This document shows, piece by piece, positions 44,583 through 63,244 of a DNA stretch of 64,000 bases (its first letter is position 1; the number at the start of each line of letters is the position of its first letter). The stretch comes from an uncultured Acidobacteriota bacterium (GTDB taxonomy: Bacteria > Acidobacteriota > Vicinamibacteria > Fen-336). The stretch is from NCBI GenBank assembly GCA_902826455.1, contig CADEEV010000001.1, forward strand, positions 298,983 to 362,982. Reading direction: 5' to 3'. The notes under the pieces are model-generated. The model ran no database searches. It was not told where the DNA came from and was given only the letters and a program-made list of their open reading frames with translations. A program made the position numbers and the translations under genes.

Positions 44583-45980
<1,398 letters not shown>

Positions 45981-46032
45981 GCCGCGATTATCCCTTCGTC
46001 CCGGCGCCGCGTACACTGCGATCCAGACTCCC

Positions 46033-48543
46033 ATGGCCGACCTGCGCACCCTGCGCTACGCGCGTCTCGCGTCCGCCGCGATCGTGCTCGCGTTCCTCCT
46101 CGCGCTCGAGTTCTCGGCGGCGTCGCGGCCCACGCTGCAGCTCGCGAGCGACGCCTTCCAGCTCGGGCTGTGCCTGGTCTCCGGCGTGTTGTGCCTGGCC
46201 GCCGCGCGCCGGGGAAGCGTGCCGGCCCGCCGCTTCTGGCGCCTGCTCGGGGCCGGCGCGCTCACGTGGACCGCCGCCCAGGCGCTCTGGACGTGGCGCC
46301 TCGTGGGCCTCGATCCCCAGAAGCTCCCGCTCCTCGACGACCTGCTGTTCTGGCTCGCCCTCGTGCCCTGGCTGCTCGCCGTGGTGGCGCGCCCCGACCG
46401 TCCGCGCGTCCGCGCCACGGGCCTGTGGTTCGACGCGACCCTCGTCGCCGTCCTGGCGCTCCACGTCTACGCGTACGCCATGGCCGGCAGCCTCCAGGCC
46501 GGGCGTGGCGCCATCTTCGTCGCCTGGCCGCCGGAGTTCTGGTACGTCCGCGACGGGGCGTTGATCGGCTCCTACGTCTGGCTGGTCGTCACCGCGGCGC
46601 CGCCCTGGCGCGCCGTCTTTGCCCAGGTGCTCGCGGCGATGGCGATCCTGCACGGCGGCGACACGTTCAGCAGCCTCTTCATCCGCGAGGGCTCGTACCA
46701 CCCCGGCCTGCTGGACCTCCCCTGGACCGCGCCCTTCCTGATCCTGGCCCACGCGGCCGCATCCTTCCGCCCGGGTCCGGGCTTCGACGTTGCGCCCTGG
46801 GAGCCCGACTGGCGCCGGACCCGCCGCGGCATGCTCACGGCCACGGTCATCGTCGTGCTCGTGCCCGGGACGCACCTCGCATACCGCTCGTGGATCGAGG
46901 CCGGCGCGGGCCCGTTCGCCCTCCAGGGCGCCCTCGCGCTCGGCACCACGCTGCTGATCGGAGGCTTGCTGGCGCTGCGCCAGTGGCAGCTGCTGCGCGC
47001 GTTCCAGGAGGCGCAGGAGGAGCGCGAGAAGGCGCTGCGGCGCTCCGAGGAGCGTTTCCAGAAGGCCTTCGAGGCGAGTCCCGCCGCCCTCAGCCTCAGG
47101 ACGCGCGCCGACGGCCGCTACCTCGACGTCAACGAGCGGGGCCTCGCCTTGCTCGGCTACGCGCGCGCGGAGATCGTGGGCCACGCGGCGGAGGAGCTCG
47201 GCATCTGGATCGAGCCGGCCGCGCGGGTGGCTCTCGAGCAGCTGGCGCGGGAGGAAGGCAGCGTCCGCGACTTTCCGGCGCGCTTCCGCACCCGCTCGGG
47301 GGAGGTGCGCGAGGTCATCAGCTCCGTGGAGACCCTGGAGATCGACGGCGTCCCATGCCTGCTCGAGCTCACCGAGGACGTCACCGAGCGTCGCAAGCTC
47401 GAGGAGCGCCTGGTCCAGTCCCAGCGCCTCGAGTCCATGGGCCGCCTGGCTGGCGGCATCGCCCACGACTTCAACAACCTCCTGGGCGTCATCCTCGGCT
47501 ACTCGTCGCTGGTGCTGAGCCGCCTGCCCGAGGACCACCCCGTGACGGGGAAGGTCGCGCAGATCCAGCGCGCCGGCGAGCGGGCGGCGGGCCTGACGCG
47601 GCAGCTTCTCGCCTTCAGTTCCCGCCAGGTCCTCGTGCCGACCGTCGTGGACCTCGCGGTCCTGCTCCACGACACGGAGAAGATGCTCGGGCGCCTCATC
47701 GGCGAGGACATCGAGCTCGCGACCTCGGTGGCGCCGGGACTGGGCCGCGTGAAGGCCGACCCGAGCCAGATCGAGCAGGTCCTGATGAACCTCGTCGTCA
47801 ACGCGCGCGACGCGATGCCCGAAGGCGGCCGCCTCGGCATCGACCTCCGCGACGTGACCGTCGAGAGCCCGCTACCCCTCGAACGGGGCGTCCTGCCGCC
47901 CGGGGCCTACGTCGTGCTGGCCGTCCGCGACTCCGGCGTCGGCATCAGCGACGATGTGCGCGATCACCTCTTCGAGCCGTTCTTCACCACCAAGGAGCGC
48001 GGCAAGGGCACCGGCCTCGGCCTCGCGACCGTCCACGGCATCGTGGAGCAGAGCGGCGGCCGCATCTCGGTCGAGACGACGCTGGGGGCCGGCACCACGT
48101 TCCGGGTCTACCTGCCGCGTGTCGACGACGCCGCCTCGGATGCGGGCCGGGCGCCCGCTGCAGCCACCCCGCGCGGATCCGAGACGCTGCTGCTCGTCGA
48201 GGACGAGGATCCGCTCCGCGAGATGACCCGCGAGATCCTGACCGAGGGCGGCTACGTGGTCCTCGAGGCCGAGAACGGGAGCCGCGCCCTCGAGGTCGCG
48301 GCGGCCCACGCGGGCCCGATCCACCTGCTGCTGACCGACGTGGTCATGCCCGGTCTGAGCGGCCCGAAGACGGCCGAGCGCCTCACGGCGCTGCGGCCCG
48401 GGACCCGCGTGTTGTTCGCTTCGGGCTACACGGCGGGGGAGCTGGGGCCCCACGGCGTGCTCGACCCCAGCGTCGAATTCCTGCAGAAACCCTACACGCC
48501 CGACGATCTGCTGGCGCGCATCCGCGACGTCCTCGATCGCTGA
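46033..48543 (+). CDS. Hybrid sensor histidine kinase/response regulator (multi-TM N-terminus, PAS, HisKA, HATPase, REC)
   Basis: H-box (IAHDFNNLL), N/G1/G2 boxes ([22 protein letters not shown]), receiver domain with the phospho-acceptor Asp motif ([10 protein letters not shown]). Start at ATG 46033 within the 1051 aa track ORF. Confidence 0.85.
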
Positions 48544-48562
48544 CGCGCGCCAGCGGTCTCGC

Positions 48563-48904
48563 TCAGGCGCGCACGACGGACGGCTGGGCCGCGGGCACGA
48601 GCTGCTGCAGCTTCTCGAAGGAGACGAGGCCCACGCTCTGCTCCACGAGGGCTCCCTTGCGGAACACGAGCAGCGTCGGGATGCTCGAGATCCCGAAGCG
48701 GCCGGCGATGTCCTGGCTCTCGTCGACGTTGAGCTTGCCCACCACCACGTCGGGCCGCGCCTCGGCGAAGCGCTCGACGGTCGGGGTGAGCAGCCGGCAC
48801 GGCGCGCACCACTGGGCCCAGAAGTCGACGAGGACGGTCTTGTCGGACTTGAGCACCAGGGCATCGAAGTTCTGGGACGTCAGGGTCACGGTCTTGTCGG
48901 ACAT
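48563..48904 (-). CDS. trxA: Thioredoxin
   Basis: WCAPCR active site (FWAQWCAPCRLL). Start reassigned to MSDKTV. Confidence 0.9.
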   Translation of the reverse strand: MSDKTVTLTSQNFDALVLKSDKTVLVDFWAQWCAPCRLLTPTVERFAEARPDVVVGKLNVDESQDIAGRFGISSIPTLLVFRKGALVEQSVGLVSFEKLQQLVPAAQPSVVRA

Positions 48905-48948
48905 CGGATCACCTCGAATGGAAATTGGAATGAGAACGGCCGAACGGC

Positions 48949-49281
48949 TCAACGCGACTGGCGGAACACCAGCTCCAGCAATTCCTCGTAGACCCGGTCG
49001 GCACGCTGGGTGCCGTGGGCCTGATCGACGCAATGCTTCAGGTGATTCCGCATCAGCCCGCGCGCCACGCTGCGGAGGGCCTCCTGGACCGCGGCCATCT
49101 GGGTGAGGATCTCGGGGCAGTAGCGCTCTTCCTCCAGCATCCGCTGCAGGCCGCGCAGCTGGCCCTCGATCCGCCGCAGGGATCCCTGGCTCTTCGCCTT
49201 GATCTCCGCGTCCACCACCGAGCGGGCGCTCCCGTCGCGGACCTCGCAGGCGCAGGCCGAGCCCGCCCCCAGGTCCACCAC
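48949..49281 (-). CDS. CsoR/RcnR/FrmR-family (DUF156) metal/stress-sensing transcriptional repressor
   Basis: RIEGQLRGLQRML...YCPEIL...NHLKHC gives a C-H-x3-C sensing triad (CsoR-like). Start moved from the track ATG 49320 to GTG 49281, which is preceded by AGGAGG at 9-nt spacing; this also frees the upstream operator palindromes from the coding region. Confidence 0.75.
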   Translation of the reverse strand: MVDLGAGSACACEVRDGSARSVVDAEIKAKSQGSLRRIEGQLRGLQRMLEEERYCPEILTQMAAVQEALRSVARGLMRNHLKHCVDQAHGTQRADRVYEELLELVFRQSR

Positions 49282-49358: not shown

Positions 49359-50576
49359 TCAAGGGGCCAAGGGGAGGCGCTTCACGATCACGGCCGTGGT
49401 GTCGTCCTCCCAGGGCGCGCCTCGCCCGAAGGCCTGCACGGTGTCGAACAGCGCCTCCAGGATCTGCTCGGCGCTGCCCTCGGCGTGGCTGCGCACCACG
49501 GCCTTGATGCCGTCCTCGCCGAAGAACTCCCCGGCGGCGTTGCGCCGCTCCAGGACGCCGTCGGTGCACAGCACCAGGATCGCGCCCGGCTCGAAGCGCG
49601 TGTAACCGCGCCGGAAGCGCACCTCCGGCAGCGGGCCGATCACGGTGCCCCCGGTCTCCAGGGAATGGACGCCCTCGCGGTCGAACAGGAGCGGCGGCGG
49701 ATGGCCCGCGTTGACGTAGATGAGCGTGCCGTTCACCTCGAGCTCGCCGTAGAAGACCGAGATGAAGCGGCTCGACAGGTTGCTGCGATGGATGACGCGG
49801 TTGAGCCGCTCGAAGACGTGGGCGACCTTGAACTCCTTCTCGATGCCCATGCGCAGGCCGGTGACGACGTCGCGCACGAGCAGGGCGGCCGGCAATCCGT
49901 GGCCGCTCGCGTCGCCGATCGCGAGGCCCAGCATCTCGTCGTCGAAGGGGTGGAAGTCGTAGAAGTCGCCGCCCACCTCCTCGGTGGCCTCGGAACGGCA
50001 CGCGATGTCGAAGCCGGGGAAGTCGGGCGGGTCCTCGACGAGCAGGCTCTGCTGGATCTCCGCGGCCTGGCGCAGGCTGCCGCGCGTGCGCTCGTCCAGC
50101 AGCCGCGAGCCGAGCGCCGCACGCACCGTGTTGAGGGCGAAGTCGAGCTCCTCCATGGCCCAGCCGTCGGCCAGCAGGAAGAACAGCACGTGACGCCGGG
50201 GCCGGCGGCCCACCACGATCGCCGCCGCGGGGCCCGCGGGCAGAATGCCGGTGGAGAAGGGCGCGTCGGGCTCCGTCGGGCGATTGAAGACGTAGACCCG
50301 ATGCCGGAACACGAGCTGCAGCGTCGGGTTCGTGGGATCGAGGGTCTCCGCGGCGCCGCCCGGGTCGCCCAGGCTGCGCAGCAGCGTCAGGTCGTCGCGC
50401 TGCTCGGCGTAGAGGAACGCCGCGCGCAGCCGGAGATCCTCGCGGAGGGTGCGGAAGAAGTCCTCCACGAATGCCTCCAGCACGCGGCTCTGGGGCTGGC
50501 TGGTGTCGAGGCCGCTGAAGAGGCTGTCGAGGCGGCGATAGAGCGGCTTGGCCTCGAGGCGTGGCGGTGTGGCCAT
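49359..50576 (-). CDS. PP2C/SpoIIE-family Ser/Thr phosphatase with an N-terminal sensor (GAF-like) region
   Basis: PP2C motifs (GGDFYDF, GDASGHG, DGVLE). Start reassigned to MATPPRLEAK. Confidence 0.8.
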   Translation of the reverse strand: MATPPRLEAKPLYRRLDSLFSGLDTSQPQSRVLEAFVEDFFRTLREDLRLRAAFLYAEQRDDLTLLRSLGDPGGAAETLDPTNPTLQLVFRHRVYVFNRPTEPDAPFSTGILPAGPAAAIVVGRRPRRHVLFFLLADGWAMEELDFALNTVRAALGSRLLDERTRGSLRQAAEIQQSLLVEDPPDFPGFDIACRSEATEEVGGDFYDFHPFDDEMLGLAIGDASGHGLPAALLVRDVVTGLRMGIEKEFKVAHVFERLNRVIHRSNLSSRFISVFYGELEVNGTLIYVNAGHPPPLLFDREGVHSLETGGTVIGPLPEVRFRRGYTRFEPGAILVLCTDGVLERRNAAGEFFGEDGIKAVVRSHAEGSAEQILEALFDTVQAFGRGAPWEDDTTAVIVKRLPLAP

Positions 50577-50590
50577 GGGGCCTGATCGTA

Positions 50591-51775
50591 TCAGGGAGAC
50601 GGCGTCAGGCCCCGCGCGCCGATCTCGGCCACCACGATCTCGAGGATCTCGTACACCGCCCGGTTCGCCGGAAGCGCCGCGAGGCGGGCGCGCGTCGCGC
50701 CGCTCGCCGCTTCCTCGCGGGCGAAGGCGGCGGCGGCCGCGGGGATCTCCCGCCACGACCGCACGACGACCCCCATTCCCTGCTGGCGGACGAAATGCGC
50801 GTTGTAGCGCTCCTGGGGAATCGTCCTCGCGTCGCACGTCACGACGACCGGGAGGCGCTGATGGAAGGCCTCGGCCAGCGAGCCGGGCCCCGGCTTCGTC
50901 GCCAGCAGATCCGCGGCTGCCATCAGATCGGCGACGCGATCCGTGTAGCCGAACGTCCGCAGCCGGCCACGGGCGCGTCCTTCGAGCGCCGAGAGCTGCG
51001 CGACCAGCTCGGGGTTTTCGCCGCAGACGGCGACGACGCGGAACCCGGCGGGCGCCGCCAGCAGCTGCCCGGCGAGCGGCTCCATCTCGGGCGCGCCCTT
51101 GCCGCCGAAGAGCATCAGGACCACGAAGTCCTCGTCCACGAAACCGAGCTCGTGGCGCACGCGGGCCCGCGCCTCGGCGCCGCCGCCGCGGTGGAAGGCG
51201 GGCCGCAGCGGCATGCCCGAGGTCCGCGAGATGCGGTCGCGGGCGAGCCCCGCCTGGGCGGCCTGCTCGACGGCATGGGCGCCGCCGACGATCGCCCGGT
51301 CGATGCCCGGCTCGATCCAGAAGTGCGGCGGGTAGTCGGCATAGTCGGTGAGGCTGACGAGGAACGGGACGCCGGGATGGCTCAGTCGCACGGCATCGCG
51401 GAGCACCGCGTTGAAGTTCGGCAGCACGGAGACGACCGCCGCGGGCCGCCAGGCGCCGAGGGCGCGTGCGACGGCGCCGGTGAAGGCGCGCTGCCGCACG
51501 CGGATCACGGCGTGGAGCACGTGGAGCATGGCCGGGAGGAACCGGGTCTGGCCGCGCCGGATCAGCCCGTTGTAGGTGTCCTCGGAGGATCGGCCCGTCA
51601 GGCGCTTCATGAAGTCGAGGGGCTCGAGGACGTCCTGCAGGCTCACCAGGCGGATCGCGAACGGGAGATCCTGTTCCTCGGCCGCCGCCGCCAGTGCCCG
51701 CGCCGCGGCGCGATGCCCACCGCCCGCGTCCATGTAGAAGATGACGATCTCCGGCCGCCCGGTCGTGCCTGGCAT
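50591..51775 (-). CDS. GT28 diacylglycerol glycosyltransferase (UgtP / MGDG-synthase family)
   Basis: IVIFYMDAGGGHRAAARAL and TKPGPGSLAEA match UgtP/MGDG-synthase N- and C-terminal motifs. Start taken as ATG 51775 (MPGTTGRPEIV); a further upstream in-frame ATG at 51868 (MKTTETF) would add 31 non-homologous residues. Confidence 0.8.
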   Translation of the reverse strand: MPGTTGRPEIVIFYMDAGGGHRAAARALAAAAEEQDLPFAIRLVSLQDVLEPLDFMKRLTGRSSEDTYNGLIRRGQTRFLPAMLHVLHAVIRVRQRAFTGAVARALGAWRPAAVVSVLPNFNAVLRDAVRLSHPGVPFLVSLTDYADYPPHFWIEPGIDRAIVGGAHAVEQAAQAGLARDRISRTSGMPLRPAFHRGGGAEARARVRHELGFVDEDFVVLMLFGGKGAPEMEPLAGQLLAAPAGFRVVAVCGENPELVAQLSALEGRARGRLRTFGYTDRVADLMAAADLLATKPGPGSLAEAFHQRLPVVVTCDARTIPQERYNAHFVRQQGMGVVVRSWREIPAAAAAFAREEAASGATRARLAALPANRAVYEILEIVVAEIGARGLTPSP

Positions 51776-51797
51776 CGGCAGATGGTCGCGGGCCCGC

Positions 51798-51824
51798 TCG
51801 ACGGCGCCGTGACGGCGCGATGAC
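51798..51824 (-). promoter_or_regulatory. Pho-box-like 11-bp-phased direct repeats upstream of the GT28 gene
   Basis: Minus-strand GTCATCGCGCC-GTCACGGCGCC-GTCGAGCGGGCC, three repeats at 11-nt spacing, ending ~23 nt before ATG 51775. Confidence 0.35.
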
Positions 51825-51940
51825 GCCGCCGCCTCGCCTGCGTCATCGAATGTTTCCGTTGTCTTCATGTTCCCGTCGTTTCGGCGCGCTCCAATAGCCT
51901 CGGACCTCAAGAAGTCCGTGAGGTCCGAGAGGAGGGCGCC

Positions 51941-52834
51941 ATGGAAGACGGCATGCGCTGCGACCTTCACGTCCACTCGCTGTGCTCGGGTCCGCTCGAG
52001 TGCTACTCGACACCGCGGGAGGTCTACGACACCGCGCGGGCCCGCGGCATGACCCTCGTGACCCTCACCGACCACGATTCCATCGAGGGCGCCCTGAGCC
52101 TCGCCCATCTCCGGGACTTCTTCGTGAGCGAGGAGGTGACCTGCCTCCTCCCCGGAGGCCGCCAGCTGCACCTCGGCGTCTTCGGGATCGACGAGGCGCG
52201 GCATGCCGCGATCCAGGAGCGGCGGAAGGACGCCGAGTCGCTGTTCGCCTACCTGGCGGAGGCGCGCATTCCCACGGCCGTCAACCACCTCTTCTCGGCC
52301 CTGACCGGCCGCAGGCGCCTCGCCGACTTCGAGCTGGCCCTGCGCCACGCGCGGCTGATCGAGACGCGCAACGGGATGATGCCCGAGAGCACCAACCACT
52401 TCGCGGCGCGAGTCGGTCGCCGGGCCCGGCTGCCCGGGGTGGGCGGCAGCGACGCCCACACGCTCGCGTCGGTGGCGCGCGCGTTCACTATCGTTCCCGG
52501 CGCCTCGGACCGCGACGGCTTTCTCGACGGCCTGCGGCGGGGCATGACGATCCCGGCCGGGGGCTCGGGCAGCTACGCCCGGCTCACCGCCGACGTGGCC
52601 CGGCTCTTCGCCGGCGGCTACGCCGAGAACGCGCGCCGCGCCCGCTCCGGCCTGGTTCCGGCCCTGCGCTTCACGGCCCTTCTCGCCGCGCTGCCGCTCC
52701 TGCCCCTGCTGCCGCTCATCACCGCCGGCATCTACGCCGACGAGGTCTTCTTCGGCGCGCGCCAACACCGGCTCTACGAAGCCGCCCAGGCGACGCTCGA
52801 CGCCGCCGCGCCGGGCGCCGTGGTGTCGCGATGA
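51941..52834 (+). CDS. PHP-domain metal-dependent phosphoesterase
   Basis: CDLHVHS...LTDHDS PHP motifs; 297 aa. Confidence 0.8.
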   Translation: MEDGMRCDLHVHSLCSGPLECYSTPREVYDTARARGMTLVTLTDHDSIEGALSLAHLRDFFVSEEVTCLLPGGRQLHLGVFGIDEARHAAIQERRKDAESLFAYLAEARIPTAVNHLFSALTGRRRLADFELALRHARLIETRNGMMPESTNHFAARVGRRARLPGVGGSDAHTLASVARAFTIVPGASDRDGFLDGLRRGMTIPAGGSGSYARLTADVARLFAGGYAENARRARSGLVPALRFTALLAALPLLPLLPLITAGIYADEVFFGARQHRLYEAAQATLDAAAPGAVVSR

Positions 52835-53373
52835 GCCCGGTGCTCGCCTACGTCAACGACTCGGACTTTCGCGCCTTCGGCCGCATCCAGCAGTGGCGTC
52901 CGCCGCGCTGGTTCCGTCTCTGGATGCTGTGGGCCACGCGCCTGGGCGACGGCTGGCTGCAGGTCGCCATCGGCCTCGCGCTCTTCGCCGGCGGCTCCGA
53001 GTCCCAGCGGGTGCTCGCGGCGAGCGTCGTCGCCACCGGGATCGCGAGCGGACTGCTCGTCGTCCTGAAGCGGCGCTTCCGTCGCCAGCGGCCCTGCGAC
53101 TACGCCCGTCACCCCCTGTACGACGTCAAGCCGCTCGAGTACGTGGCCGCGGACCACTTCTCCTTTCCCTCGGGGCACTCCATGAACGCCTTCGCCGTGT
53201 CCACCGTCGTCGCGCTGTCGTTCCCCTGGACGACTCCAGTCGGCCTGCTCCTCGCGACGAGCGTGGCCGCGTCCCGGGTCCTCCTCGGCCTCCACTTCGT
53301 GAGCGACGTGATCGTGGGCTCCGTGCTCGGCGCCGGCATCGCTGCGATCATCTTCCTTGTGCTGCTCGCCTAG
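52831..53373 (+). CDS. PAP2-family (phosphatidic acid phosphatase type 2) membrane phosphatase
   Basis: KRRFRRQRP...PSGHS...SRVLLGLHFVSDV, the three PAP2 signature motifs; 4-5 TM. ATGA-coupled to the PHP gene. Confidence 0.8.
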   Translation: MSPVLAYVNDSDFRAFGRIQQWRPPRWFRLWMLWATRLGDGWLQVAIGLALFAGGSESQRVLAASVVATGIASGLLVVLKRRFRRQRPCDYARHPLYDVKPLEYVAADHFSFPSGHSMNAFAVSTVVALSFPWTTPVGLLLATSVAASRVLLGLHFVSDVIVGSVLGAGIAAIIFLVLLA

Positions 53374-53388
53374 CCTAGACTCGGCGCC

Positions 53389-54699
53389 ATGCTCGCCCTG
53401 CTACTGGCCGCGGCCCTTGCGCCCGCGCCTCCCGTCGTGCTGATCTCGATCGACGGGATGCGACCCGACTACGTGCTCGAGGCCGATCGCTACGGTCTCC
53501 AGATTCCCGAGCTGCGGCGGCTGCTGAAGGAGGGCGCCCACGCCGCCGCCGTGACCGGGGTGATGCCCACCGTCACCTATCCGAGCCACACCACGCTGGT
53601 GACGGGCGTGTCGCCGGCGAAGCATGGCCTCGTCGCCAACGAGACCTTCGATCCGCTCGGGAAGAACCACGACGGCTGGGCCTGGTACGCCGAGGACATC
53701 CGCGTCGAGACGCTGTGGGATGCGGCCGCTAAGGCAGGCCTCGTGGTGTCCAACGCGGATTGGCCCGCGACCGTGGGCGCGCGCATCCCGTTCAACATCG
53801 CGCAGATCTGGCGCGCCAGCACCCCCGACGACGCGAAGCTGCTGCGGGCGGTCTCGACGCCCGGGCTGCTGCGGGAGATGGAAGCGAGCCTCGGGCCGTA
53901 CCCGAGCGGCTACTCGTACACCGTGAGCGACGACGAGAAGAAGGTGCCCTTCACCGCATGGCTGCTGGAGAGGAAGCGCCCGCGCTTGCACCTGTGCTAC
54001 TTCTCCGGTCTCGACGAGGAGTCCCACGCCAGCGGGCCGGGCAGCCCCGAGACGCTCGCGGTCCTCGAGCGACTGGACGCCGTGATCGGCCGGGTGCGTG
54101 CCGCGGCCGAGCGCGCGGGTGGCGGCAAGGCCATCGTGGCCGTCGTTTCAGACCACGGGCACCAACGCACGGACCGTGAGCTCCACCTGAACGAGGCGCT
54201 GCGCGAAGAAGGCCTCCTGACGCTGGACGGTGCCGGCAAGCTCACGGACTGGCGGGCCTTCTCCTGGGATGCTGGCGGGTCGGCCGCAGTCTTCCTCAAG
54301 GACCCCGCCGACGTGGACGGGGGACAACGCGTGACGGCGCTCCTGAAGCGGCTCGCGGCCGATCCGGGGAGTGGCATCGAGCGGATCGTCGGGTCCGATG
54401 CGGTGCCGGCGACCGGCGGCTTTCCGGGCGCTCTCTTCGTGGTCGGCTTGAAGGCCGGGTACCGGTTCGGGAGCTCTCTCGAGGCCCCCGTGACCCGCCA
54501 AGGTCTCGTCCACGGCACCCACGGCTACCCGCCGGACCTGCAGACGATGGACGCCTCGTTCTTCATCGCGGGCCCGGGTATTCCGGCGGGCCTCGATCTC
54601 GGCCGCATCGACATGCGGGACATCGCGCCGACCCTGGCGGGCCGCCTCGGTCTCGTGCTGCCGGCGGCCGAAGGCCGCGACCGGCTCAGCGCTCGCTGA
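53389..54699 (+). CDS. Type I phosphodiesterase / nucleotide pyrophosphatase (NPP, alkaline-phosphatase superfamily)
   Basis: LISIDGMRPDY and TVTYPSHTTLVTG (Thr nucleophile motif), plus VVSDHGH; signal peptide. Confidence 0.85.
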   Translation: MLALLLAAALAPAPPVVLISIDGMRPDYVLEADRYGLQIPELRRLLKEGAHAAAVTGVMPTVTYPSHTTLVTGVSPAKHGLVANETFDPLGKNHDGWAWYAEDIRVETLWDAAAKAGLVVSNADWPATVGARIPFNIAQIWRASTPDDAKLLRAVSTPGLLREMEASLGPYPSGYSYTVSDDEKKVPFTAWLLERKRPRLHLCYFSGLDEESHASGPGSPETLAVLERLDAVIGRVRAAAERAGGGKAIVAVVSDHGHQRTDRELHLNEALREEGLLTLDGAGKLTDWRAFSWDAGGSAAVFLKDPADVDGGQRVTALLKRLAADPGSGIERIVGSDAVPATGGFPGALFVVGLKAGYRFGSSLEAPVTRQGLVHGTHGYPPDLQTMDASFFIAGPGIPAGLDLGRIDMRDIAPTLAGRLGLVLPAAEGRDRLSAR

Positions 54700-54960
54700 C
54701 GCGCCGGTCGTCCCCGCCGAGACCGGCCTCGGTGAGGATCTCGTCGATCACGGTGCGACCCGTATCGGCGCTTCCCGGCCCGAGGCGCATCCAGGCGGGA
54801 GGCCGTCCCGGCGGGGCGTGACGGCCACGCCGCCGCCGGGCGGCTCGTTGGCTGGCGAGACGTCCAAAGGGACGCTTCTGTCGAGACATGCTTGAGGGAA
54901 AGGTTAGGCCCGGGCCATGACGGTCGCGTGGCGCTCGCGCGATGGTCCGGCCACTCTTTC

Positions 54961-55000
54961 TTAACGTCCCGTTCACGCGTCCGTCACGCCGGCGTCACGC
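54961..55000 (+). promoter_or_regulatory. Pho-box-like direct repeat array upstream of oprP
   Basis: TTAACgtcccg-TTCACgcgtcc-GTCACgccggc-GTCACgc, four pentamer cores at exact 11-bp phasing, 40-80 nt upstream of the oprP ATG (55042), which has an AAGGAGG RBS. Confidence 0.45.
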
Positions 55001-55041
55001 ACCCCTCCTAAGTTGACGGCATCTCAAGGAGGCGTGTTTTG

Positions 55042-56517
55042 ATGACAGCCAAGGCGATCCGGCGCGGTCTCGCGACGGCAGCAGCGGTTCTGATCGGCGT
55101 GGGACTCACGGCCAGTGCCTGGGCCCAGAATTTCTTCTATCGCGAGATCGTGAAGGACGGGCGCATCTACGTCTTCGCCATCGCGAAGGAAGCGGAGCAG
55201 TTCGAGAAGTCGGGCGAGGTCGGCCGCGCGATCACGAAGCTCGGCTACGGCCCGAACGGCGAGACCATGGTCTTCGACAGCGAGGACGCCATCGGCCTCT
55301 ACAACATGAAGCACGACCGGCCCGGCGACGTCACCGCGGTCGCGAAGCCCGTCGTCGCGCCCAAGCAGCTCCTCACCTACAAGGACGGGCAGCTCACGGC
55401 CGAGTTCGACAAGGCACAGGTGAGCTTCACGAATCGCCTCCAGCTGCGCTTCACCCAGCAGATGCCCGACGAGACGGTGCAGCTCGCCGGGACGTCGGCG
55501 AAGGGCGACGGCAAGGGCTCCTTCCGCATCCGCCGCTACGAGCCCCAGTTCCAGGGCTGGCTCTACACGAAGGACCTCACCTTCAAGCTCGAGTTCGCGT
55601 TCCAGGACCTGCAGGGCAACACGAACTCCGGCGCCATCAACGACGCCTACTTCAACTACGACCTCACGAAGGGCAAGAAGGCGTTCCGCCTGCAGTTCGG
55701 TCAGTTCAAGGTGCCCTTCGGCCGCCAGGAGCTGACCTCGTCCTTCAACCAGACCTTCGTCGACCGCTCGATCGTGGCGGGCGAGTTCGAGCGCGGCCGT
55801 GACCTGGGCTTCCAGGTGGACGGCCTGCTCGCCTCCAACAAGGTCGAGTACCGCGCCGGCATCTTCAACGGCCGCGCCAGCAACACGGGCCGCAACCAGA
55901 CCGCGAACGACAACGACAAGTACCAGTACGACGCGCGTCTCATGTGGCAGCCCTTCGGCGACGTCCGCTACTCGGAGAGCGACTTCGAATCGGTGGACAA
56001 GCCGCTCCTCGCGATCGCCGGCGGGTTCGAGAGCCTCGACCTCGGGCTGACGGTGCCGCAGCCTGCGGCCACCGTGCCGCCCGCGCCGCCCGCGACGCCG
56101 CTGCCGAAGATCTCGGCCTGCCCGTGCGCGGCCGGCAACTACAAGTGGACGATCTTCGCCACCGACGTGGTCTTCAAGTACAAGGGCTTCTCCGCGATGG
56201 GCGAGCTCTTCAACCGCGAGATCAAGCCCTCGGACGGCGCGACGCCGGACTCGCCGACGTTCAAGTCGAACGGCTATCACGTCCAGGCGGGCTACCTGCT
56301 CAACAAGAAGCGGACCTGGGAAGTGGCGTTCCGCTACGCCTCGTTCGATCCCACGAACGCCGTCTCGGGCAACGACCGCACGGAGATCGGCGGCGGACTG
56401 AACTGGTTCTACAACAAGCACTTCGCGAAGATCCAGGCCGACTGGCGTCAGCTCGAGGACAAGGCGAAGAAGACGAAGGACCAGGAAGTCCGCATCCAGA
56501 CGCAGCTCTACTTCTAG
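55042..56517 (+). CDS. oprP: Phosphate-selective porin OprO/OprP
   Basis: 492 aa; signal peptide; beta-barrel; C-terminal F. Immediately upstream of pstSCAB. The track ORF starts at TTG 55039; ATG 55042 is preferred. Confidence 0.85.
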   Translation: MTAKAIRRGLATAAAVLIGVGLTASAWAQNFFYREIVKDGRIYVFAIAKEAEQFEKSGEVGRAITKLGYGPNGETMVFDSEDAIGLYNMKHDRPGDVTAVAKPVVAPKQLLTYKDGQLTAEFDKAQVSFTNRLQLRFTQQMPDETVQLAGTSAKGDGKGSFRIRRYEPQFQGWLYTKDLTFKLEFAFQDLQGNTNSGAINDAYFNYDLTKGKKAFRLQFGQFKVPFGRQELTSSFNQTFVDRSIVAGEFERGRDLGFQVDGLLASNKVEYRAGIFNGRASNTGRNQTANDNDKYQYDARLMWQPFGDVRYSESDFESVDKPLLAIAGGFESLDLGLTVPQPAATVPPAPPATPLPKISACPCAAGNYKWTIFATDVVFKYKGFSAMGELFNREIKPSDGATPDSPTFKSNGYHVQAGYLLNKKRTWEVAFRYASFDPTNAVSGNDRTEIGGGLNWFYNKHFAKIQADWRQLEDKAKKTKDQEVRIQTQLYF

Positions 56518-56576
56518 TCCGGCAGGCGGGGGCGGGCGCGTGGCGCCCGCGCCCCGCATCTCTCGAATCCCATCGA

Positions 56577-56613
56577 ATTAACGCGGAGTTAACAGAGGCG
56601 AAACGTCCCGTTC
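56577..56613 (+). promoter_or_regulatory. Pho-box-like repeats upstream of pstS, sharing a 12-mer with the oprP upstream region
   Basis: TTAAC-N7-TTAAC-N7-AACGTCCCGTTC. The 12-mer AACGTCCCGTTC is identical to 54963-54974. Confidence 0.4.
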
Positions 56614-56671
56614 CCAGGCCCTCGCTAGATTGAGGGACATGGAAAAGCGGTTCGCCCCGGAGGTAGGTCTC

Positions 56672-57637
56672 ATGAAGCGTATCGTCGCTGCCGTCGCTCT
56701 CGTCGCGGCCGGTGCGGCCACGGCCGGCGCCCAGCAGGTGAAGGTCGATGCCGCGATCACGTCGTACCAGAAGACGTCGGGTGTCTCGGGGAACCTGAAC
56801 AGCGTCGGTTCCGACACCATGAACAACCTGATGACGCTCTGGGCCGAGGCGTTCCTCAAGATGTACCCGAACGTGAAGGTGCAGGTCGAGGGCAAGGGCT
56901 CCTCGACGGCGCCGCCCTCGCTGATCGCGGGCACGTCGCAGTTCGGCCCCATGTCCCGCGCGATGCGTCCGACGGAGATCGACCAGTTCGAGACGAAGTA
57001 CGGCTACAAGCCGACGCAGCTCCGCACGTCCTACGACGCCCTCGCGATCTACGTGAACAAGGACAACCCCCTCGACAAGCTGACCCTGGCCCAGGCCGAC
57101 GCGGTCTTCTCGAAGACGCGCCGCCGCGGCTTCAAGCAGAACGTCACGACCTGGGGCCAGCTCGGTCTCACGGGCGACTGGGCGAACCGGCCGATCAGCA
57201 TCTACGGCCGCAACTCGGCCTCGGGCACCTACGGCTTCTTCAAGGAGCACACCCTCGGCAACGGCGACTTCAAGGACACGGTCAAGGAGCAGCCCGGTTC
57301 GGCGTCGGTGGTGCAGGGCGTGACCGAGGACCGCTTCGGCATCGGCTACTCGGGCATCGGCTACAAGACCTCCGGCGTCAAGGTCGTGACGCTCGCCGAG
57401 AAGGACGGCTCGGCCTACTCCGACGGCAACTACGAGGACGTGAAGAGCGGCAAGTACCCGCTCAACCGCTTCCTCTACCTCTACATCAACCGCGCGCCGG
57501 GCAAGCCCCTCGACCCCGTCGTGAAGGAGTTCTGCAAGCTGATCTTCAGCAAGGAAGGCCAGGACGTCGTGCTCAAGGACGGGTACCTGCCGCTTCCGGC
57601 CGAGATCGTGCGCCAGGAACTCGCGAAGCTCGAGTAG
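56672..57637 (+). CDS. pstS: Phosphate ABC transporter substrate-binding protein PstS
   Basis: Signal peptide; PstS family motifs (SGNLNSVGSDTM, GTYGFF). Start at MKRIVAAV with a GGAGG RBS. Confidence 0.9.
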   Translation: MKRIVAAVALVAAGAATAGAQQVKVDAAITSYQKTSGVSGNLNSVGSDTMNNLMTLWAEAFLKMYPNVKVQVEGKGSSTAPPSLIAGTSQFGPMSRAMRPTEIDQFETKYGYKPTQLRTSYDALAIYVNKDNPLDKLTLAQADAVFSKTRRRGFKQNVTTWGQLGLTGDWANRPISIYGRNSASGTYGFFKEHTLGNGDFKDTVKEQPGSASVVQGVTEDRFGIGYSGIGYKTSGVKVVTLAEKDGSAYSDGNYEDVKSGKYPLNRFLYLYINRAPGKPLDPVVKEFCKLIFSKEGQDVVLKDGYLPLPAEIVRQELAKLE

Positions 57638-57715: not shown

Positions 57716-60013
57716 ATGGCCGCAGCCGCTCCAGCCCCCCTCAGCATCCGGCAGCGCGTCAAGGAACAGGCGTTCCGCATCAAGCGCGTGAAGCAGATGG
57801 ACCGCCTGGCGGTCGGGTTCATCACCTTCGGCGGGCTCTTCATCATCGTCGCGGTCCTCTTCATCTTCGTCTTCATCCTGTCGGAAGCGCTGCCGCTGTT
57901 CCGGCCGGCCACTGGCCAGGCCCGCGGCGTCGTGAACCTGGCCGCCGTGCCGCCGCCGACCCTCCCGCCGGCGACCGTGGCGACGGCGCCCGCGCCCAAG
58001 GCCGCCAGCCCCGGCGAGCTGGGCAAGCCCCTGGTGATGGGCACCGACGAGTACCAGCTCTACTTCTACGAGCTGCTGTCGGACGGCCGCACGGCGTTCT
58101 TCAAGACCGACGGCACGTTCGCCAAGGAGGTCACGTCGACGGCCCTGGCTCCGTCCAAGGTCGCCTCGGCGTCCCGCAGCCTCACCGACAACTTCGTGGC
58201 GATCGGCACCGACGACGGTCGCGTGCTCCTGCAACAGGTGCGCTTCCGTCCGCGCTACGAGAACCAGAAGCTCGTCGACCTCGAGACCGAGGTGAGCGAG
58301 CGCGGCGTGGTCGAGCTCGACGCCGCGAAGCGGCCGATCCGCGAGATCGCCTACGACGAGAAGGACGGCCGCAAGACGGCGATCGCGGTGGCGGGAGACG
58401 ACGACATCCTCGTCTACCGCACGGACGACGACGGCACCGAGCACCGCGAGGCCCTGAAGACCCGGGACGGCGAGAAGGTCACGCGGGTCCGCATCGGCCG
58501 CAGCGACACCCTGATCGCGGCGACCGACAGGGGTCACCTGTACCACTGGGAGCTCCTGCCCGAGGTGCGCCTCACCGAGGTGGTGAAGGTCTCGAACGAG
58601 CCGATCACCGCGGTCGAGTACGTGCTCGGGGGCATCACGGCCATCGTGGGCGACGCCAAGGGGAACCTGAGCGCGTGGTTCCGCGTGCGCCTGCGCGAGG
58701 ACGACACCGACCTCAAGTTCGTGAAGGCTCACGAGTACGCGCCGCAGGGCGTCGTCATCGCCGCGATCGGCCCGTCGACCCGCGACAAGAGCTTCGTGAG
58801 CGCCGGCTCCGACGGCTCCCTGGTGCTGCGCCACATGACCTCGGAGCGCAGCCTGCTCGAGTTCCCGTCGACCCAGGCGCCCGTGGACTCCGTCCTGCTG
58901 ACGCCCAAGATGGACGGGATCCTCGCGAAGCAGGCCGATGGCAAGGTGGCCCGCTACGAGATCTCGAGCCCGCATCCCGAGGTGTCCTGGCGCGCGCTCT
59001 TCGGCAAGGTCTGGTACGAGGGCTACACGAAGCCCGAGTACGTCTGGCAGTCGACCGGCGGCACCGACGACTTCGAGACCAAGTTCTCGCTGGTGCCGCT
59101 CGTCTTCGGCACGATCAAGGGCACGCTGTATGCGCTGCTCTTCGCGATACCCCTGGCGATCCTGGGGGCGCTCTACACGTCGCAGTTCATGCACCCGTCG
59201 ATCAAGGCGCGGGTCAAGCCGACGGTCGAGATCATGGCCGCCCTGCCCAGCGTCGTGGTGGGCTTCATCGCGGGCCTCTGGCTCGCCTCGCGGGTGGAGC
59301 GCGAGATCGTGCCCGTGCTCCTGATGATGGTCCTGCTGCCGTTGTTCGGGACGCTCGGCATCCTGCTGTGGGATCGGCTGCCGCGCGCCTTCCGCGACCG
59401 TCTGCGGCCCGGCATGGAGATCGCGCTGATCGTGCCCCTCGTCTGCCTGGGCGGGGTGGTGGCCGTCTGGATCGGCCCGCTCACGGAGGCCGCGCTCTTC
59501 GGAGGCGACTTCCGGCTCTGGGTGAAGAGCGCCCTCGACGTGGTCTACGACCAGCGCAACTGCCTGGTCGTCGGCATCGCGATGGGCTTCGCGGTGATCC
59601 CCATCATCTTCACGATCGCCGAGGACTCGTTCTCGAGCGTGCCCCAGCACCTGACGGCGGCCTCGCTCGCCCTCGGGGCCAGCCGCTGGCAGACCGCGAT
59701 GCGGGTGGTCCTGCCGACCGCGAGCCCGGGCCTGTTCTCCGCCGTGATGATCGGCTTCGGCCGCGCCGTCGGCGAGACCATGATCGTGCTGATGGCCACC
59801 GGCAACACGCCGGTCCTCGACTGGTCGATCTTCAACGGCATGCGCACGCTCTCGGCGAACATCGCCGTGGAGATCCCCGAGGCGCCCTACGGCGGCACGC
59901 TCTACCGCACGCTGTTCCTCGCGGCCCTCGCGCTCTTCCTCATGACCTTCTTCGTCAACACGATCGCGGAGCTGATCCGCCAGCGGCTGCGCGACCGCTA
60001 CCGGGCCATCTGA
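57716..60013 (+). CDS. pstC: Phosphate ABC transporter permease PstC (long form with a large N-terminal periplasmic domain)
   Basis: 765 aa; the C-terminal ~300 aa carry the PstC TMs and EAA loop; the N-terminal ~450 aa are an extra domain, as in long-form PstC proteins. Confidence 0.9.
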   Translation: MAAAAPAPLSIRQRVKEQAFRIKRVKQMDRLAVGFITFGGLFIIVAVLFIFVFILSEALPLFRPATGQARGVVNLAAVPPPTLPPATVATAPAPKAASPGELGKPLVMGTDEYQLYFYELLSDGRTAFFKTDGTFAKEVTSTALAPSKVASASRSLTDNFVAIGTDDGRVLLQQVRFRPRYENQKLVDLETEVSERGVVELDAAKRPIREIAYDEKDGRKTAIAVAGDDDILVYRTDDDGTEHREALKTRDGEKVTRVRIGRSDTLIAATDRGHLYHWELLPEVRLTEVVKVSNEPITAVEYVLGGITAIVGDAKGNLSAWFRVRLREDDTDLKFVKAHEYAPQGVVIAAIGPSTRDKSFVSAGSDGSLVLRHMTSERSLLEFPSTQAPVDSVLLTPKMDGILAKQADGKVARYEISSPHPEVSWRALFGKVWYEGYTKPEYVWQSTGGTDDFETKFSLVPLVFGTIKGTLYALLFAIPLAILGALYTSQFMHPSIKARVKPTVEIMAALPSVVVGFIAGLWLASRVEREIVPVLLMMVLLPLFGTLGILLWDRLPRAFRDRLRPGMEIALIVPLVCLGGVVAVWIGPLTEAALFGGDFRLWVKSALDVVYDQRNCLVVGIAMGFAVIPIIFTIAEDSFSSVPQHLTAASLALGASRWQTAMRVVLPTASPGLFSAVMIGFGRAVGETMIVLMATGNTPVLDWSIFNGMRTLSANIAVEIPEAPYGGTLYRTLFLAALALFLMTFFVNTIAELIRQRLRDRYRAI

Positions 60014-61650
60014 TGAACGCCCTCGTGAAGTCCTGGCGGCGCGGCGATCCGATGGTGTGGTTCACCGGCAGCGCCCTGGGCATCTGCATCCTGATGATCG
60101 TGGGGCTCGTCCTCGTCATCCTCACCAACGGCTTGAGCTTCTTCTGGCCGAAGGCGCTGACGCAGCTCACCTTGAAGGACGGCAGCGTCCTCATGGGCGA
60201 GCTCGCGTCGAGCGAGCCCATCCCGAACCCGGGCCACCCCGACCACCTCCAGAAGCAGCGCCTGCTCGTGCGCGTGGGCAACCGCGACGTCTACGGCTTC
60301 GACTTCAAGTGGGTGCCCGAAGGCGACATCGCGAAGCAGGAGCGGCCTCGCGACGCCTACTTCGTGGAGCGCCGCGAGTACGGGCCGTTACTCGGGACGC
60401 CGGTCCGGGTGAAGCAGGGCGACAAGATCCTGGCCGAGGGCGCGGCCGCCGTCGAGCTCGCCCTCCCGGGCCTGATCGCCCGTGCTGCGGAGGACCGCTC
60501 CGCCATCGAGCGCATCGAGAAGCACGAGATCGGCGACATCAACTACGAGATCGAGCGTCTGCGGCTCGAGTCCCGCGCCCTCGACCTCGCGGCCAGCCGC
60601 GGCCAGGACGTGGCCGAGAAGCGCGCCGACGTCGAGCGCGCCACGGCGGCCCAGAAGGCGCTGTTCCAGACGAAGACCGACGAGCTCGCCCAGCTCACCG
60701 AGCGCGTCGCCGGCACCTGGGTCGCCTTCGTCACCGCCGACGGCCAGGAAAAGGAGCTGCGGTCCCTCGACATCTACCGCTCCTACGCCGCGAACCAGCT
60801 CACCCTCCTCGGACGGCTCTCGGTCTACGGCGGCCGGCTCTGGGCCTTCTTCATCGAGGGTCCGCGCGAGTCGAACACCGAGGGCGGCATCTTCCCGGCC
60901 ATCTTCGGCACCGTGATGATGGTGATCATCATGAGCATCATCGTGGTGCCCCTGGGCGTGCTGGCCGCGCTCTACCTGCGCGAGTACGCGAAGCAGGGCC
61001 TGCTCGTCCGGATCGTCCGGATCGCGGTCAACAACCTGGCCGGCGTGCCGTCCATCGTCTTCGGCGTGTTCGGCCTCGGCTTCTTCGTGTACACCGTCGG
61101 CGGCACGATCGACGCATTGTTCTTCCCCGAGGCGCTCCCGACGCCGACTTTCGGCACCGGAGGCATCCTCTGGGCGGCCTTGACCCTGGCGCTCCTCACG
61201 GTGCCCGTCGTGATCGTGTCCTCGGAGGAGGCGCTCGCCGCCGTGCCGCGCTCGATGCGCGAGGCGTCCCTCGCCATGGGCGCCACGAAGTTCCAGACCA
61301 TCCTGCGCGTGGTGCTGCCGGCGGCCGCGCCCGGCATCCTCACGGGACTGATCCTCGCCATGGCGCGCGGCGCGGGCGAGGTGGCGCCGCTGATGCTGAC
61401 GGGCGTCGTCAAGCTGGCGCCCGAGCTGCCCGTCGACGGCTTCTTCCCGTTCTTCCACTTCGACCGGAAGTTCATGCACCTGGGCTTCCACATCTACGAC
61501 GTGGGCTTCCAGAGCCCGAACGTCGAGGCGGCGAAGCCCATGGTCTACACGACGACGATCTTCCTGCTCCTGATCGTGGTGCTCCTGAACCTCACCGCGA
61601 TCGTGGTCCGCAACCGGCTTCGCGAGAAGTACAAGACCGGCGCCTTCTAG
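60013..61650 (+). CDS. pstA: Phosphate ABC transporter permease PstA (long form)
   Basis: 545 aa; PstA TMs and EAA loop (EASLAMGATKFQTILRVVLP). The ATG overlaps the pstC stop (TGATG). Confidence 0.9.
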   Translation: MNALVKSWRRGDPMVWFTGSALGICILMIVGLVLVILTNGLSFFWPKALTQLTLKDGSVLMGELASSEPIPNPGHPDHLQKQRLLVRVGNRDVYGFDFKWVPEGDIAKQERPRDAYFVERREYGPLLGTPVRVKQGDKILAEGAAAVELALPGLIARAAEDRSAIERIEKHEIGDINYEIERLRLESRALDLAASRGQDVAEKRADVERATAAQKALFQTKTDELAQLTERVAGTWVAFVTADGQEKELRSLDIYRSYAANQLTLLGRLSVYGGRLWAFFIEGPRESNTEGGIFPAIFGTVMMVIIMSIIVVPLGVLAALYLREYAKQGLLVRIVRIAVNNLAGVPSIVFGVFGLGFFVYTVGGTIDALFFPEALPTPTFGTGGILWAALTLALLTVPVVIVSSEEALAAVPRSMREASLAMGATKFQTILRVVLPAAAPGILTGLILAMARGAGEVAPLMLTGVVKLAPELPVDGFFPFFHFDRKFMHLGFHIYDVGFQSPNVEAAKPMVYTTTIFLLLIVVLLNLTAIVVRNRLREKYKTGAF

Positions 61651-61656
61651 AAGGAA

Positions 61657-62511
61657 ATGAGCGCAATGTCCCAGGGAACGACGAAAGCGCCGCCCGACAG
61701 CGGGCTGCGCATCCGCACCGAGGTCAAGGCCGCCGTGGCGCCCGCCGCGGACAAGGGCGAGCCCGACATCACGATCGACGCGGTGAACCTGAGCTACGGC
61801 GACAACCACGTCCTCCACGACATCACCATGGCCATCGACGACCGGCGCGTGACCGCGTTCATCGGACCGTCGGGGTGCGGCAAGTCGACGCTGCTGCGTT
61901 GCCTCAACCGGATGAACGACCTCATCGACAACGTGAGGATCACCGGCAAGATCACGGTCAAGGGCCTCGACATCAACGCCGCCACGACCGACGTGATCGA
62001 GGTGCGGCGCCGCATCGGCATGGTCTTCCAGAAGTCGAACCCGTTCCCGAAGTCGATCTACGAGAACGTGGTGTACGGCCTGCGCATCGCCGGCATCAAC
62101 GACAAGGCGACCCTCGACGAGGCCTGCGAGCGCAGCCTCAAGGGCGCGGCACTGTGGGAAGAGGTGAAGGACCGCCTCGACGAGAGCGGGCTCGGGCTCT
62201 CCGGGGGACAGATGCAGCGGCTCTGCATCGCCCGCGCCATCGCCGTCGAGCCCGAGGTGATCCTGATGGACGAGCCCTGCTCGGCCCTGGACCCGATCGC
62301 CACCCTCAAGATCGAGGAGCTGATCTACGGCCTCAAGGACAAGTACACGATCGTGATCGTGACCCACAACCTGCAGCAGGCCGCCCGGGTCTCGGACAAG
62401 ACGGCGTTCTTCTGGCTCGGCAGGCTCGTGGAGTACAGCCCGACGGCCGACATGTTCACGAAGCCCGGGGACAAGCTGACGGAGGACTACATCACTGGCC
62501 GGTTCGGTTAG
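61657..62511 (+). CDS. pstB: Phosphate ABC transporter ATP-binding protein PstB
   Basis: Walker [25 protein letters not shown] signature, Walker B ILMDEP. Confidence 0.95.
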
Positions 62512-62566: not shown

Positions 62567-63244
62567 ATGGAACGCCATCATTTCGAAGACGACCTGCAGG
62601 CCCTGAAGCAGCGCCTGCTGACGATGGGCGCCCTCGTCGAGGAGCGCGCGCACCAGGCGATCGCGGCGCTCATCCACCGGCGCCTGGACGAGGCGGAGGC
62701 GGTGATCGCGGCCGACAAGGAGGTCAACGACTTCCAGATCGAGATCGACGACCGCTGTCTCAAGCTCCTGGCCCTGCAGCAGCCCATGGCCACGGACCTG
62801 CGCCTCATCACGTCGGCCATGAAGATCAACGCCGATCTCGAGCGCATCGGCGACCAGGCCGTGAACATCGCCGAGAACACGATCAAGCTCCTGCCCCAGC
62901 CCCCGCTCAAGCCGCTCATCGACATTCCGCGGATGGCCGACATCGCGGAGAAGATGACGCGCGACTCCCTCGACGCCTTCGTGCGCAAGGACGCCGAGCT
63001 CGCGAGGAGCGTGCTCACGCGAGACGACGAGGTGGACCAGCTCAAGGACCAGGTCTTCCGCGAGCTGCTCACCTACATGATGGCGGACCCCGGCACGATC
63101 CAGCGGGCCCTCGCCCTGATCCTCATCAGCCGCAACGTGGAGCGCATCGCCGACCACGCCACCAACATCGCCGAGGACGTGATCTTCCTGGTGGAAGCGA
63201 AGGACGTGCGCCACGGCCGTGAGAACGAGGAGGTGGAGAAGTGA
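62567..63244 (+). CDS. phoU: Phosphate signalling complex protein PhoU
   Basis: 225 aa; two PhoU repeats (ERIGDQAVNIAE / ERIADHATNIAE). Confidence 0.9.
   Translation: MERHHFEDDLQALKQRLLTMGALVEERAHQAIAALIHRRLDEAEAVIAADKEVNDFQIEIDDRCLKLLALQQPMATDLRLITSAMKINADLERIGDQAVNIAENTIKLLPQPPLKPLIDIPRMADIAEKMTRDSLDAFVRKDAELARSVLTRDDEVDQLKDQVFRELLTYMMADPGTIQRALALILISRNVERIADHATNIAEDVIFLVEAKDVRHGRENEEVEK

Follow-up and report, generated by a model that had tools for sequence, protein, structure and literature searches.

Predicted Pho boxes of phased 11-bp units upstream of oprP, pstS and a divergent GT28/PHP gene pair in a Vicinamibacteria genome

The Pho box consists of 11-nt direct-repeat units that are bound, head to tail, by the winged helix of PhoB (PMC4415409, PMC1906773, PMC2275107). 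It lies 10 bp upstream of a -10 element with the sequence TAN3T/A (PMC1906773). The unit core differs between species, being CTGTCAT in Escherichia coli, GTTCACC in Streptomyces coelicolor, and CTTAACCT in Synechocystis (PMC4415409, PMC1906773, PMC2275107). Both TTAAC, from cyanobacteria, and GTTCAC, from Streptomyces, are published Pho-box cores (PMC1906773, PMC4415409). The E. coli pstS promoter has the sequence CTGTCATaaaa CTGTCATattc CTTACATataa CTGTCAC, then 10 nt, then TATTTT. In the literature searched, we found no description of a Pho box, or Pho operator, in Acidobacteria or Vicinamibacteria; for the latter there were only metagenomic gene inventories. Here, we describe phased repeats in 64,000 nucleotides of DNA from an uncultured Acidobacteriota bacterium of the Vicinamibacteria (contig CADEEV010000001.1, positions 298,983 to 362,982; hereafter, the window). 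The repeats precede oprP, for a phosphate-selective porin, pstS, and the divergent genes of a GT28 glycosyltransferase and a PHP phosphoesterase. We consider it highly likely that these arrays are Pho boxes, predicted to bind the phosphorylated form of a PhoB-like regulator encoded at 63241-63966.

The arrays upstream of oprP and pstS each have four units, followed by a candidate -10 element:

54961-55004, plus strand: predicted oprP operator, four 11-bp direct-repeat units TTAACgtcccg TTCACgcgtcc GTCACgccggc GTCACgcaccc (from the sequence and an ortholog profile)
55009-55014, plus strand: candidate -10 element TAAGTT for oprP, 10 nt past the last core; transcription predicted to start near 55021
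56578-56621, plus strand: predicted pstS operator, four 11-bp units TTAACgcggag TTAACagaggc GAAACgtcccg TTCCCaggccc (from the sequence and an ortholog profile)
56626-56631, plus strand: candidate -10 element TAGATT for pstS, 10 nt past the last core; transcription predicted to start near 56638

A first-pass annotation of the window had reported four oprP pentamers at 11-bp spacing. Reading base by base confirmed them: TTAAC (54961-65), TTCAC (54972-76), GTCAC (54983-87) and GTCAC (54994-98), with the same 11-bp step throughout. The TTAAC repeats that it had noted before pstS are also present (56578-82 and 56589-93). Two further pentamers, GAAAC (56600-04) and TTCCC (56611-15), had gone unmentioned and continue in the same phase, spaced by exactly 11 bp, to complete a four-unit array. 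Note that the span originally given, 54961-56613, takes in the whole of oprP; the features proper are at 54961-55014 and 56578-56631. In both arrays a gap of exactly 10 nt separates the last pentamer from a TAnnnT hexamer. When units are pooled the core is (T/G)T(A/C)AC, and the two preceding bases and the spacer carry little information. In Bacillus subtilis, PhoP boxes are TT(A/T/C)ACA repeats at intervals of about 11 bp, four of which accommodate two dimers, and their spacing is reported as somewhat variable. The TTAAC(A) core is alike, whereas spacing in the window is strictly 11 bp.

The E. coli pstS Pho box shares with these arrays four head-to-tail 11-bp units, a GTCAC/GTCAT core, a 10-nt gap before TAnnnT, and the lack of a -35 element (PMC1906773; PMC4415409). 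However, five positions per unit are conserved in the window, rather than seven, and the CT prefix is without information. Furthermore, spacers are GC-rich instead of A/T-rich, TTAAC and TTCAC occur beside GTCAC, and the PhoB-like regulator has valine in place of wing residue Arg219. The first-pass annotation had called the consensus unlike that of E. coli. This is right only in part: GTCAC is the E. coli core (CTGTCAC), and TTAAC and GTTCAC are known from cyanobacteria and Streptomyces (PMC1906773, PMC4415409).

Two other systems can be compared. The SphR Pho box of Synechocystis, with at least three tandem CTTAACCT repeats and 3-bp linkers, has the TTAAC core, the 11-bp period and at least three units in common with the window (PMC1906773). 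Here, though, TTAAC is restricted to promoter-distal units and mixed with GTCAC-type cores, and positions following the C are not conserved. The PhoP units of S. coelicolor (GTTCACC, in operators of 2-6 units) are likewise 11 nt long and from a high-GC organism (PMC2275107); G+C content of the window is about 70%. The S. coelicolor G/TTCAC is identical to oprP unit 2 (cGTTCACg), strong cores are joined by weaker extension units, and arrays occur at divergent promoters, one of them for a glycosyltransferase (PMC2275107). The differences are that PhoP keeps the wing arginine, as Arg215, and that its consensus extends to seven or more positions (PMC2275107).

Repeats of this kind might be a product of chance, low-complexity sequence, or an RNA leader element that is transcribed, rather than a DNA operator. 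We counted matches to KTMAC-N6-KTMAC-N6-KTMAC, with at most one mismatch, on both strands of the window. There were 4 matches, against 0.04 expected, and all were at the oprP and pstS promoters. Scored with a generic-unit matrix from other genomes, the two arrays reached 30-32 bits, compared with a maximum of 16.4 in random 64-kb sequence.

Conservation of the repeats in promoters of related genomes had been named, beforehand, as the check on which the idea could fall. The repeats are conserved. A scan for PstS, with one genome per species, returned 80 loci, and oprP-pstS synteny was found in about 25 loci from Vicinamibacteria. The closest relatives of the window are metagenome-assembled genomes of Vicinamibacteria, Acidobacteriota. 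Orthologous upstream regions were scored with a matrix derived solely from the eight pentamers of the window, taking the 99th percentile of dinucleotide shuffles as threshold. For oprP, 22 of 25 regions exceeded it, and for pstS, 25 of 39. Loci with no array at pstS include five (L026-L029 and L036) where the gene directly adjoins the stop codon of oprP. Four of them have an array in front of oprP instead; L029 is unscored, its best match running beyond the extracted region.

The reverse test used a 54-column profile from orthologous promoters of other Vicinamibacteria, with the window excluded, and 50 random 64-kb sequences. Only two strong sites were found on either strand of the window, at 56578 (54 bits, the top score) and 54961 (32-45 bits). 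The random maximum was 14. Because earlier alignments were fitted to the motif, motif-blind alignments were made with MAFFT. For oprP (six genomes) the pentamers were 97% identical, with 18 of 20 columns invariant, compared with 64% for spacers and 51% for flanks. For pstS (nine genomes) the equivalent values were 92% (14 of 20 invariant), 69% and 56%. Information content was 1.3-1.6 bits in pentamer columns and 0.2-0.45 in spacers. Core variants at oprP are kept by position, in the order TTAAC, TTCAC, GTCAC, GTCAC, across the six genomes. A chance origin of the oprP and pstS arrays is excluded by the phased-pattern count, the ortholog profile and the test of orthologous upstream regions.

The four-unit architecture also precedes pstS in other phyla, including Latescibacterota, KSB1 and Nitrospirota-type genomes (24 of 40 loci with p < 0.02), and 12 of those 24 also have a TAnnnT hexamer at +15. 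It is, then, very widespread across phyla.

The distance to the -10 element is also fixed. Counting 15 nt from the start of the last pentamer, the hexamer is TAnnnT in 19 of 22 oprP, and 18 of 25 pstS, orthologous promoters with a significant array. At the pstS -10 position, orthologs keep TAGnnT. A consensus scan of 51600-57000 for sigma-70 -35/-10 promoters found none, and no -35 consensus, as expected if the promoters are activator-dependent. An Rfam scan of 51500-57000, at E <= 1, gave no match; therefore, a known RNA element is not the explanation. One further structure separates the two transcription units:

56526-56557, plus strand: GC-rich, terminator-like hairpin after oprP, without a T tract, between oprP and the pstS promoter (from folding)

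Its fold energy is -35.4 kcal/mol (z = -2.4). A consensus terminator scan of 51600-57000 detected no relevant terminator and did not call this hairpin. If it is read through, the pstS array, being downstream of oprP, would be transcribed, and the arrays of the GT28/PHP region are at chance level in the window alone. Conversely, conservation follows the 11-bp period, spacers vary freely with no compensatory pattern, and a conserved -10 element sits at a fixed distance. We find an origin as chance sequence, low-complexity sequence or RNA leader hardly credible.

The first-pass annotation had also drawn attention to a 12-mer shared by the two operators. Both copies are present:

54963-54974, plus strand: AACGTCCCGTTC, copy 1, spanning oprP units 1-2 (found by searching the window)
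56602-56613, plus strand: AACGTCCCGTTC, copy 2, spanning pstS units 3-4, in phase with copy 1 but shifted by two units

The sequence occurs nowhere else in the window. A statistic based on its frequency there is uninformative, the pattern having been drawn from the window itself. The 12-mer comprises two adjacent half-sites and a GTCCC spacer; orthologs keep the half-sites but not the spacer. We rejected the 12-mer as a functional unit, since GTCCC is different in every ortholog. Its identity at the two promoters is best read as a by-product, with no separate element involved.

The same part of the pstS promoter offers another interpretation. In the closest relatives, units 3-4 form an inverted repeat, GAAAC-N5-GTTTC, that could be the site of another factor. 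Units 3-4 (GAAAC-N5-GTTTC/GTTCC, with the 12-mer) might be the palindromic site of a separate dimeric regulator, overlying a Pho box of just two units. The window and six relatives (L001, L003, L005, L006, L012 and L023) match the inverted repeat at 4-5 of 5 positions, and pstS unit 4 is a poor direct-repeat core. However, a subgroup of Vicinamibacteria (L008-L018) is without the palindrome yet retains the four-unit phase and the -10 element. At oprP, moreover, the 12-mer falls in units 1-2, where its second half, TTCAC, agrees well with the direct-repeat core. In Pho boxes, a weak unit next to the promoter is usual (PMC2275107). A separate palindromic operator is therefore highly improbable in our judgement, and we continue to read all four pstS units as one Pho box.

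We now turn to the divergent region between the GT28 and PHP genes, where the predicted elements are:

51792-51824, minus strand: predicted GT28-directed operator, three 11-bp units GTCATcgcgcc GTCACggcgcc GTCGAgcgggc (from the sequence and ortholog conservation)
51782-51787, minus strand: -10-like hexamer GACCAT, 10 nt past the last GT28 core and 6 nt before the GT28 ATG (nAGGAT or nATCCT in orthologs); transcription predicted to start at 51775
51842-51885, plus strand: predicted PHP-operon operator, four 11-bp units GTCATcgaatg TTTCCgttgtc TTCATgttccc GTCGTttcggc (from ortholog conservation)
51890-51895, plus strand: -10-like hexamer TCCAAT, 10 nt past the last PHP core (TGCAAT or TGTAAT in orthologs); transcription predicted to start near 51902

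Repeats upstream of the GT28 gene were part of the first-pass annotation. They are present and phased by 11 bp on the minus strand (GTCAT 51824-20, GTCAC 51813-09, GTCGA 51802-798), and are conserved in seven orthologous loci. They are not significant alone, however, and are one of two divergent arrays; the other, at PHP, is the best array in the window besides those at pstS and oprP. Scanning metagenomes with the GT28 protein gave eight loci (L081-L088), with 53-57% identity, of which seven were aligned with the window (L086 was left out). The divergent PHP gene is kept in six of those seven. Across the intergenic region (about 160 bp), aligned with MAFFT, identity is 85% in the seven pentamers, where 17 of 35 columns do not vary, compared with 60-65% in spacers and elsewhere. 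The permutation p value for pentamer conservation is about 1e-4. In the register of the PHP array, orthologs keep GTCAY, KTTYC, TTCAY and GCAAY. We retain the GT28 site as real because it is conserved in orthologs. The GT28 start codon is 6-9 nt downstream of the hexamer in six of eight sequences compared, the window included. This suggests a leaderless GT28 mRNA, without a Shine-Dalgarno sequence.

The presumed reader of the repeats is encoded near the end of the window:

63241-63966, plus strand: PhoB-like response regulator of the OmpR family, overlapping the phoU stop codon

We assign this protein to PhoB because of its place after phoU, 38% identity with E. coli PhoB, and a near-identical recognition helix (RSIDAHIRRLR, compared with RTVDVHIRRLR). 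In orthologous loci, too, the gene directly follows phoU. In the window, its overlap with the phoU stop codon makes autoregulation from the pstS promoter probable. The proposal, made in the first-pass annotation, that the repeats are PhoB operators thus draws support from conservation, the 10-nt gap to TAnnnT as at E. coli pstS, Pho-type genes downstream, and a regulator that closes the pst operon. The gene context is that of a textbook Pho regulon.

Several points, besides the inverted repeat at pstS, weigh against this. The evidence is all computational; from it we infer PhoB as the binding protein, the positions of transcription starts, and induction by phosphate starvation. The regulator's best NCBIfam match is the PhoB model TIGR02154, but at 210 bits, below the curated cutoff of 296. 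Taken by itself, its DNA-binding domain resembles other OmpR-family structures more than it does E. coli PhoB. The residue aligned with wing Arg219 (in ...VETVVGIGYRF) is valine. Spacer columns of the generic unit are 20-40% A+T, and so GC-rich, and the promoter-proximal pstS unit, TTCCC, is a poor match to the core. At the divergent region, the GT28 array scores 3 bits for its three units in a window scan with the generic-unit matrix, which is chance level. The PHP array, with 8.4 bits against a mean random maximum of 9.9, is below the chance threshold. The hexamers GACCAT and TCCAAT are both weak.

Some of these points bear on which regulator is involved. The arrays could be operators for another member of the OmpR/PhoB family than the one encoded after phoU, either a paralog or a further regulator, of phosphate or envelope stress. 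Head-to-tail repeats of 11 bp are common to the whole OmpR family. Besides falling below PhoB cutoffs, the window regulator has nearly equal scores with CreB, CseB, YycF and MtrA models, and its best matches in the PDB are RegX3, in first place, and MtrA. Even so, the sites precede pstS, a phosphate porin and phosphoesterases, and the regulator is within the pst-phoU operon in all relatives examined. Note that RegX3 is itself the mycobacterial phosphate regulator (PMC4415409), and the promoter geometry equals that of E. coli PhoB promoters. Hence, we think it improbable that another family member is responsible, and favour the regulator encoded after phoU.

Other points concern how DNA is read. 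In E. coli PhoB, the wing arginine, Arg219, contacts the minor groove (PMC2275107). The A/T-rich 4-bp spacer that such an arginine reads, in E. coli-type boxes, is not found in the window arrays. Such spacers are, however, particular to E. coli-type boxes, and the wider family does not need them (PMC4415409). What the window does have are 11-bp direct repeats, a core of known type in the -35 place before TAnnnT, phosphate genes downstream, and a footprint of conservation in orthologs. The differences from E. coli can be accommodated by an ordinary Pho box that mixes strong and weak units, as in Streptomyces (PMC2275107). They also leave room for a modest variant in DNA reading. Valine occupies the wing position in every one of the 119 close homologs, at 82-95% identity, for which a wing motif could be located, whereas RegX3 and MtrA have arginine at the aligned position. 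Because the Arg219 equivalent is valine, and spacers are GC-rich and unconstrained, we propose, as a tentative and rather doubtful possibility, that PhoB of Vicinamibacteria has reduced recognition. It might read the 5-bp major-groove core only, with the minor-groove contact of the wing lost. The position-conserved cores could then set an order of occupancy, and graded thresholds, for the four transcription units.

The predicted Pho boxes suggest how the system might work. Units arranged head to tail every 11 bp, in threes or fours, would bring the bound winged-helix domains to the same side of the DNA helix. Each four-unit operator would bind two PhoB dimers. The proximal unit, ending 10 nt before TAnnnT, would stand in for a -35 element, with the sigma-70 holoenzyme recruited there by bound PhoB. 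In E. coli PhoB, the contact that substitutes for the -35 element involves region 4 of sigma-70. Phosphate limitation would switch on four transcription units: the leaderless GT28 gene, the PHP-PAP2-NPP operon, oprP, and pstSCAB-phoU-phoB. Inclusion of phoB in the last of these would result in its autoregulation.

The model that emerges for Vicinamibacteria, backed by conservation, is four (T/G)T(A/C)AC units at 11-bp spacing, then 10 nt, then TAnnnT. Vicinamibacteria are abundant and mostly uncultured soil bacteria, and the four-unit model should allow their Pho regulons to be predicted directly from metagenome-assembled genomes. In the window, it ties glycolipid synthesis and phosphoesterases to the phosphate response. 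The architecture of PhoB promoters is confirmed as conserved across phyla. This is no new mechanism but a known kind of switch, and will not surprise the specialist.

The phosphate cluster takes up the window from about 50.6 kb onwards and contains, in addition to the regulator gene, the following:

50591-51775, minus strand: GT28-family glycosyltransferase, similar to glycolipid synthases (Pfam Glyco_tran_28_C)
51941-52834, plus strand: PHP-family phosphoesterase (Pfam)
52831-53373, plus strand: PAP2 phosphatase (Pfam)
53389-54699, plus strand: NPP, nucleotide pyrophosphatase/phosphodiesterase (Pfam)
55042-56517, plus strand: oprP, phosphate-selective porin (Porin_O_P, PF07396, E = 1.6e-23), with ribosome-binding site AGGAGG at 55027-32
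56672-57637, plus strand: pstS (TIGR02136, 255 bits, above cutoff), starting at ATG 56672, with GGAGG at 56659-63, 8 nt upstream
57716-60013, plus strand: pstC (the pstC-phoU set has Pfam matches to BPD_transp_1, ABC_tran and PhoU)
60013-61650, plus strand: pstA (Pfam)
61657-62511, plus strand: pstB (Pfam)
62567-63244, plus strand: phoU (Pfam)

For the GT28 protein, the best NCBIfam match is diglucosyl diacylglycerol synthase, below cutoff. Starts of the PHP, PAP2 and NPP genes (51941-54699, plus strand) are overlapping or tightly spaced, and the three form a putative operon. For pstS, the listed open reading frame begins too early: 56630 precedes the predicted transcription start, and alignment with orthologs begins only at residue 15. 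We rejected a minus-strand open reading frame, 54686-54976, as a divergent gene that the oprP array might serve. It has no Pfam match, and is 59% identical to its L001 counterpart as protein compared with 87% as DNA. In L003 the frame is broken, according to the alignment.

OprP has an additional N-terminal domain of about 110 aa. This stretch (window 55042-55390) is outside the Porin_O_P match, and its conservation, at 50-61%, exceeds that of the barrel, at about 40%. In several loci, it is only this N-terminal stretch that matches upstream of pstS (L007 2078-2428, L012 4512-4856; L019, L023 and L037 are also listed). PstC (765 aa) and PstA (545 aa), encoded at 57716-61650, are roughly double the length of their E. 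coli counterparts. The N-terminal extension of PstC, about 500 aa, has weak matches to beta-propeller families. The distance from pstS to pstB, about 4 kb, is kept in most fetched loci, from several phyla.

Just upstream of the phosphate cluster are an open reading frame of 1472 aa without a Pfam match (44688-49106, plus strand) and a gene for a SpoIIE-type (PP2C) phosphatase (49359-50837, minus strand). Finally, the interval from the NPP gene to the predicted oprP Pho box contains a single-copy element about 100 nt long, at 54792-54895 (core 54802-54882). The minus-strand open reading frame that overlaps it probably does not encode a protein. Counterparts are found at L001 2902-3005, L003 1623-1725, L012 4180-4283 and L007 1816-1919. 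A covariance model of this hairpin element recovered its five seed sequences only, and added no covariation. Few compensatory changes were seen, and Rfam gave no match. DNA identity is 74-87%, exceeding that of the flanking proteins, and the element folds into a long, nearly invariant GC-rich hairpin with a second hairpin. The element may represent a small RNA, or else a regulatory structure.

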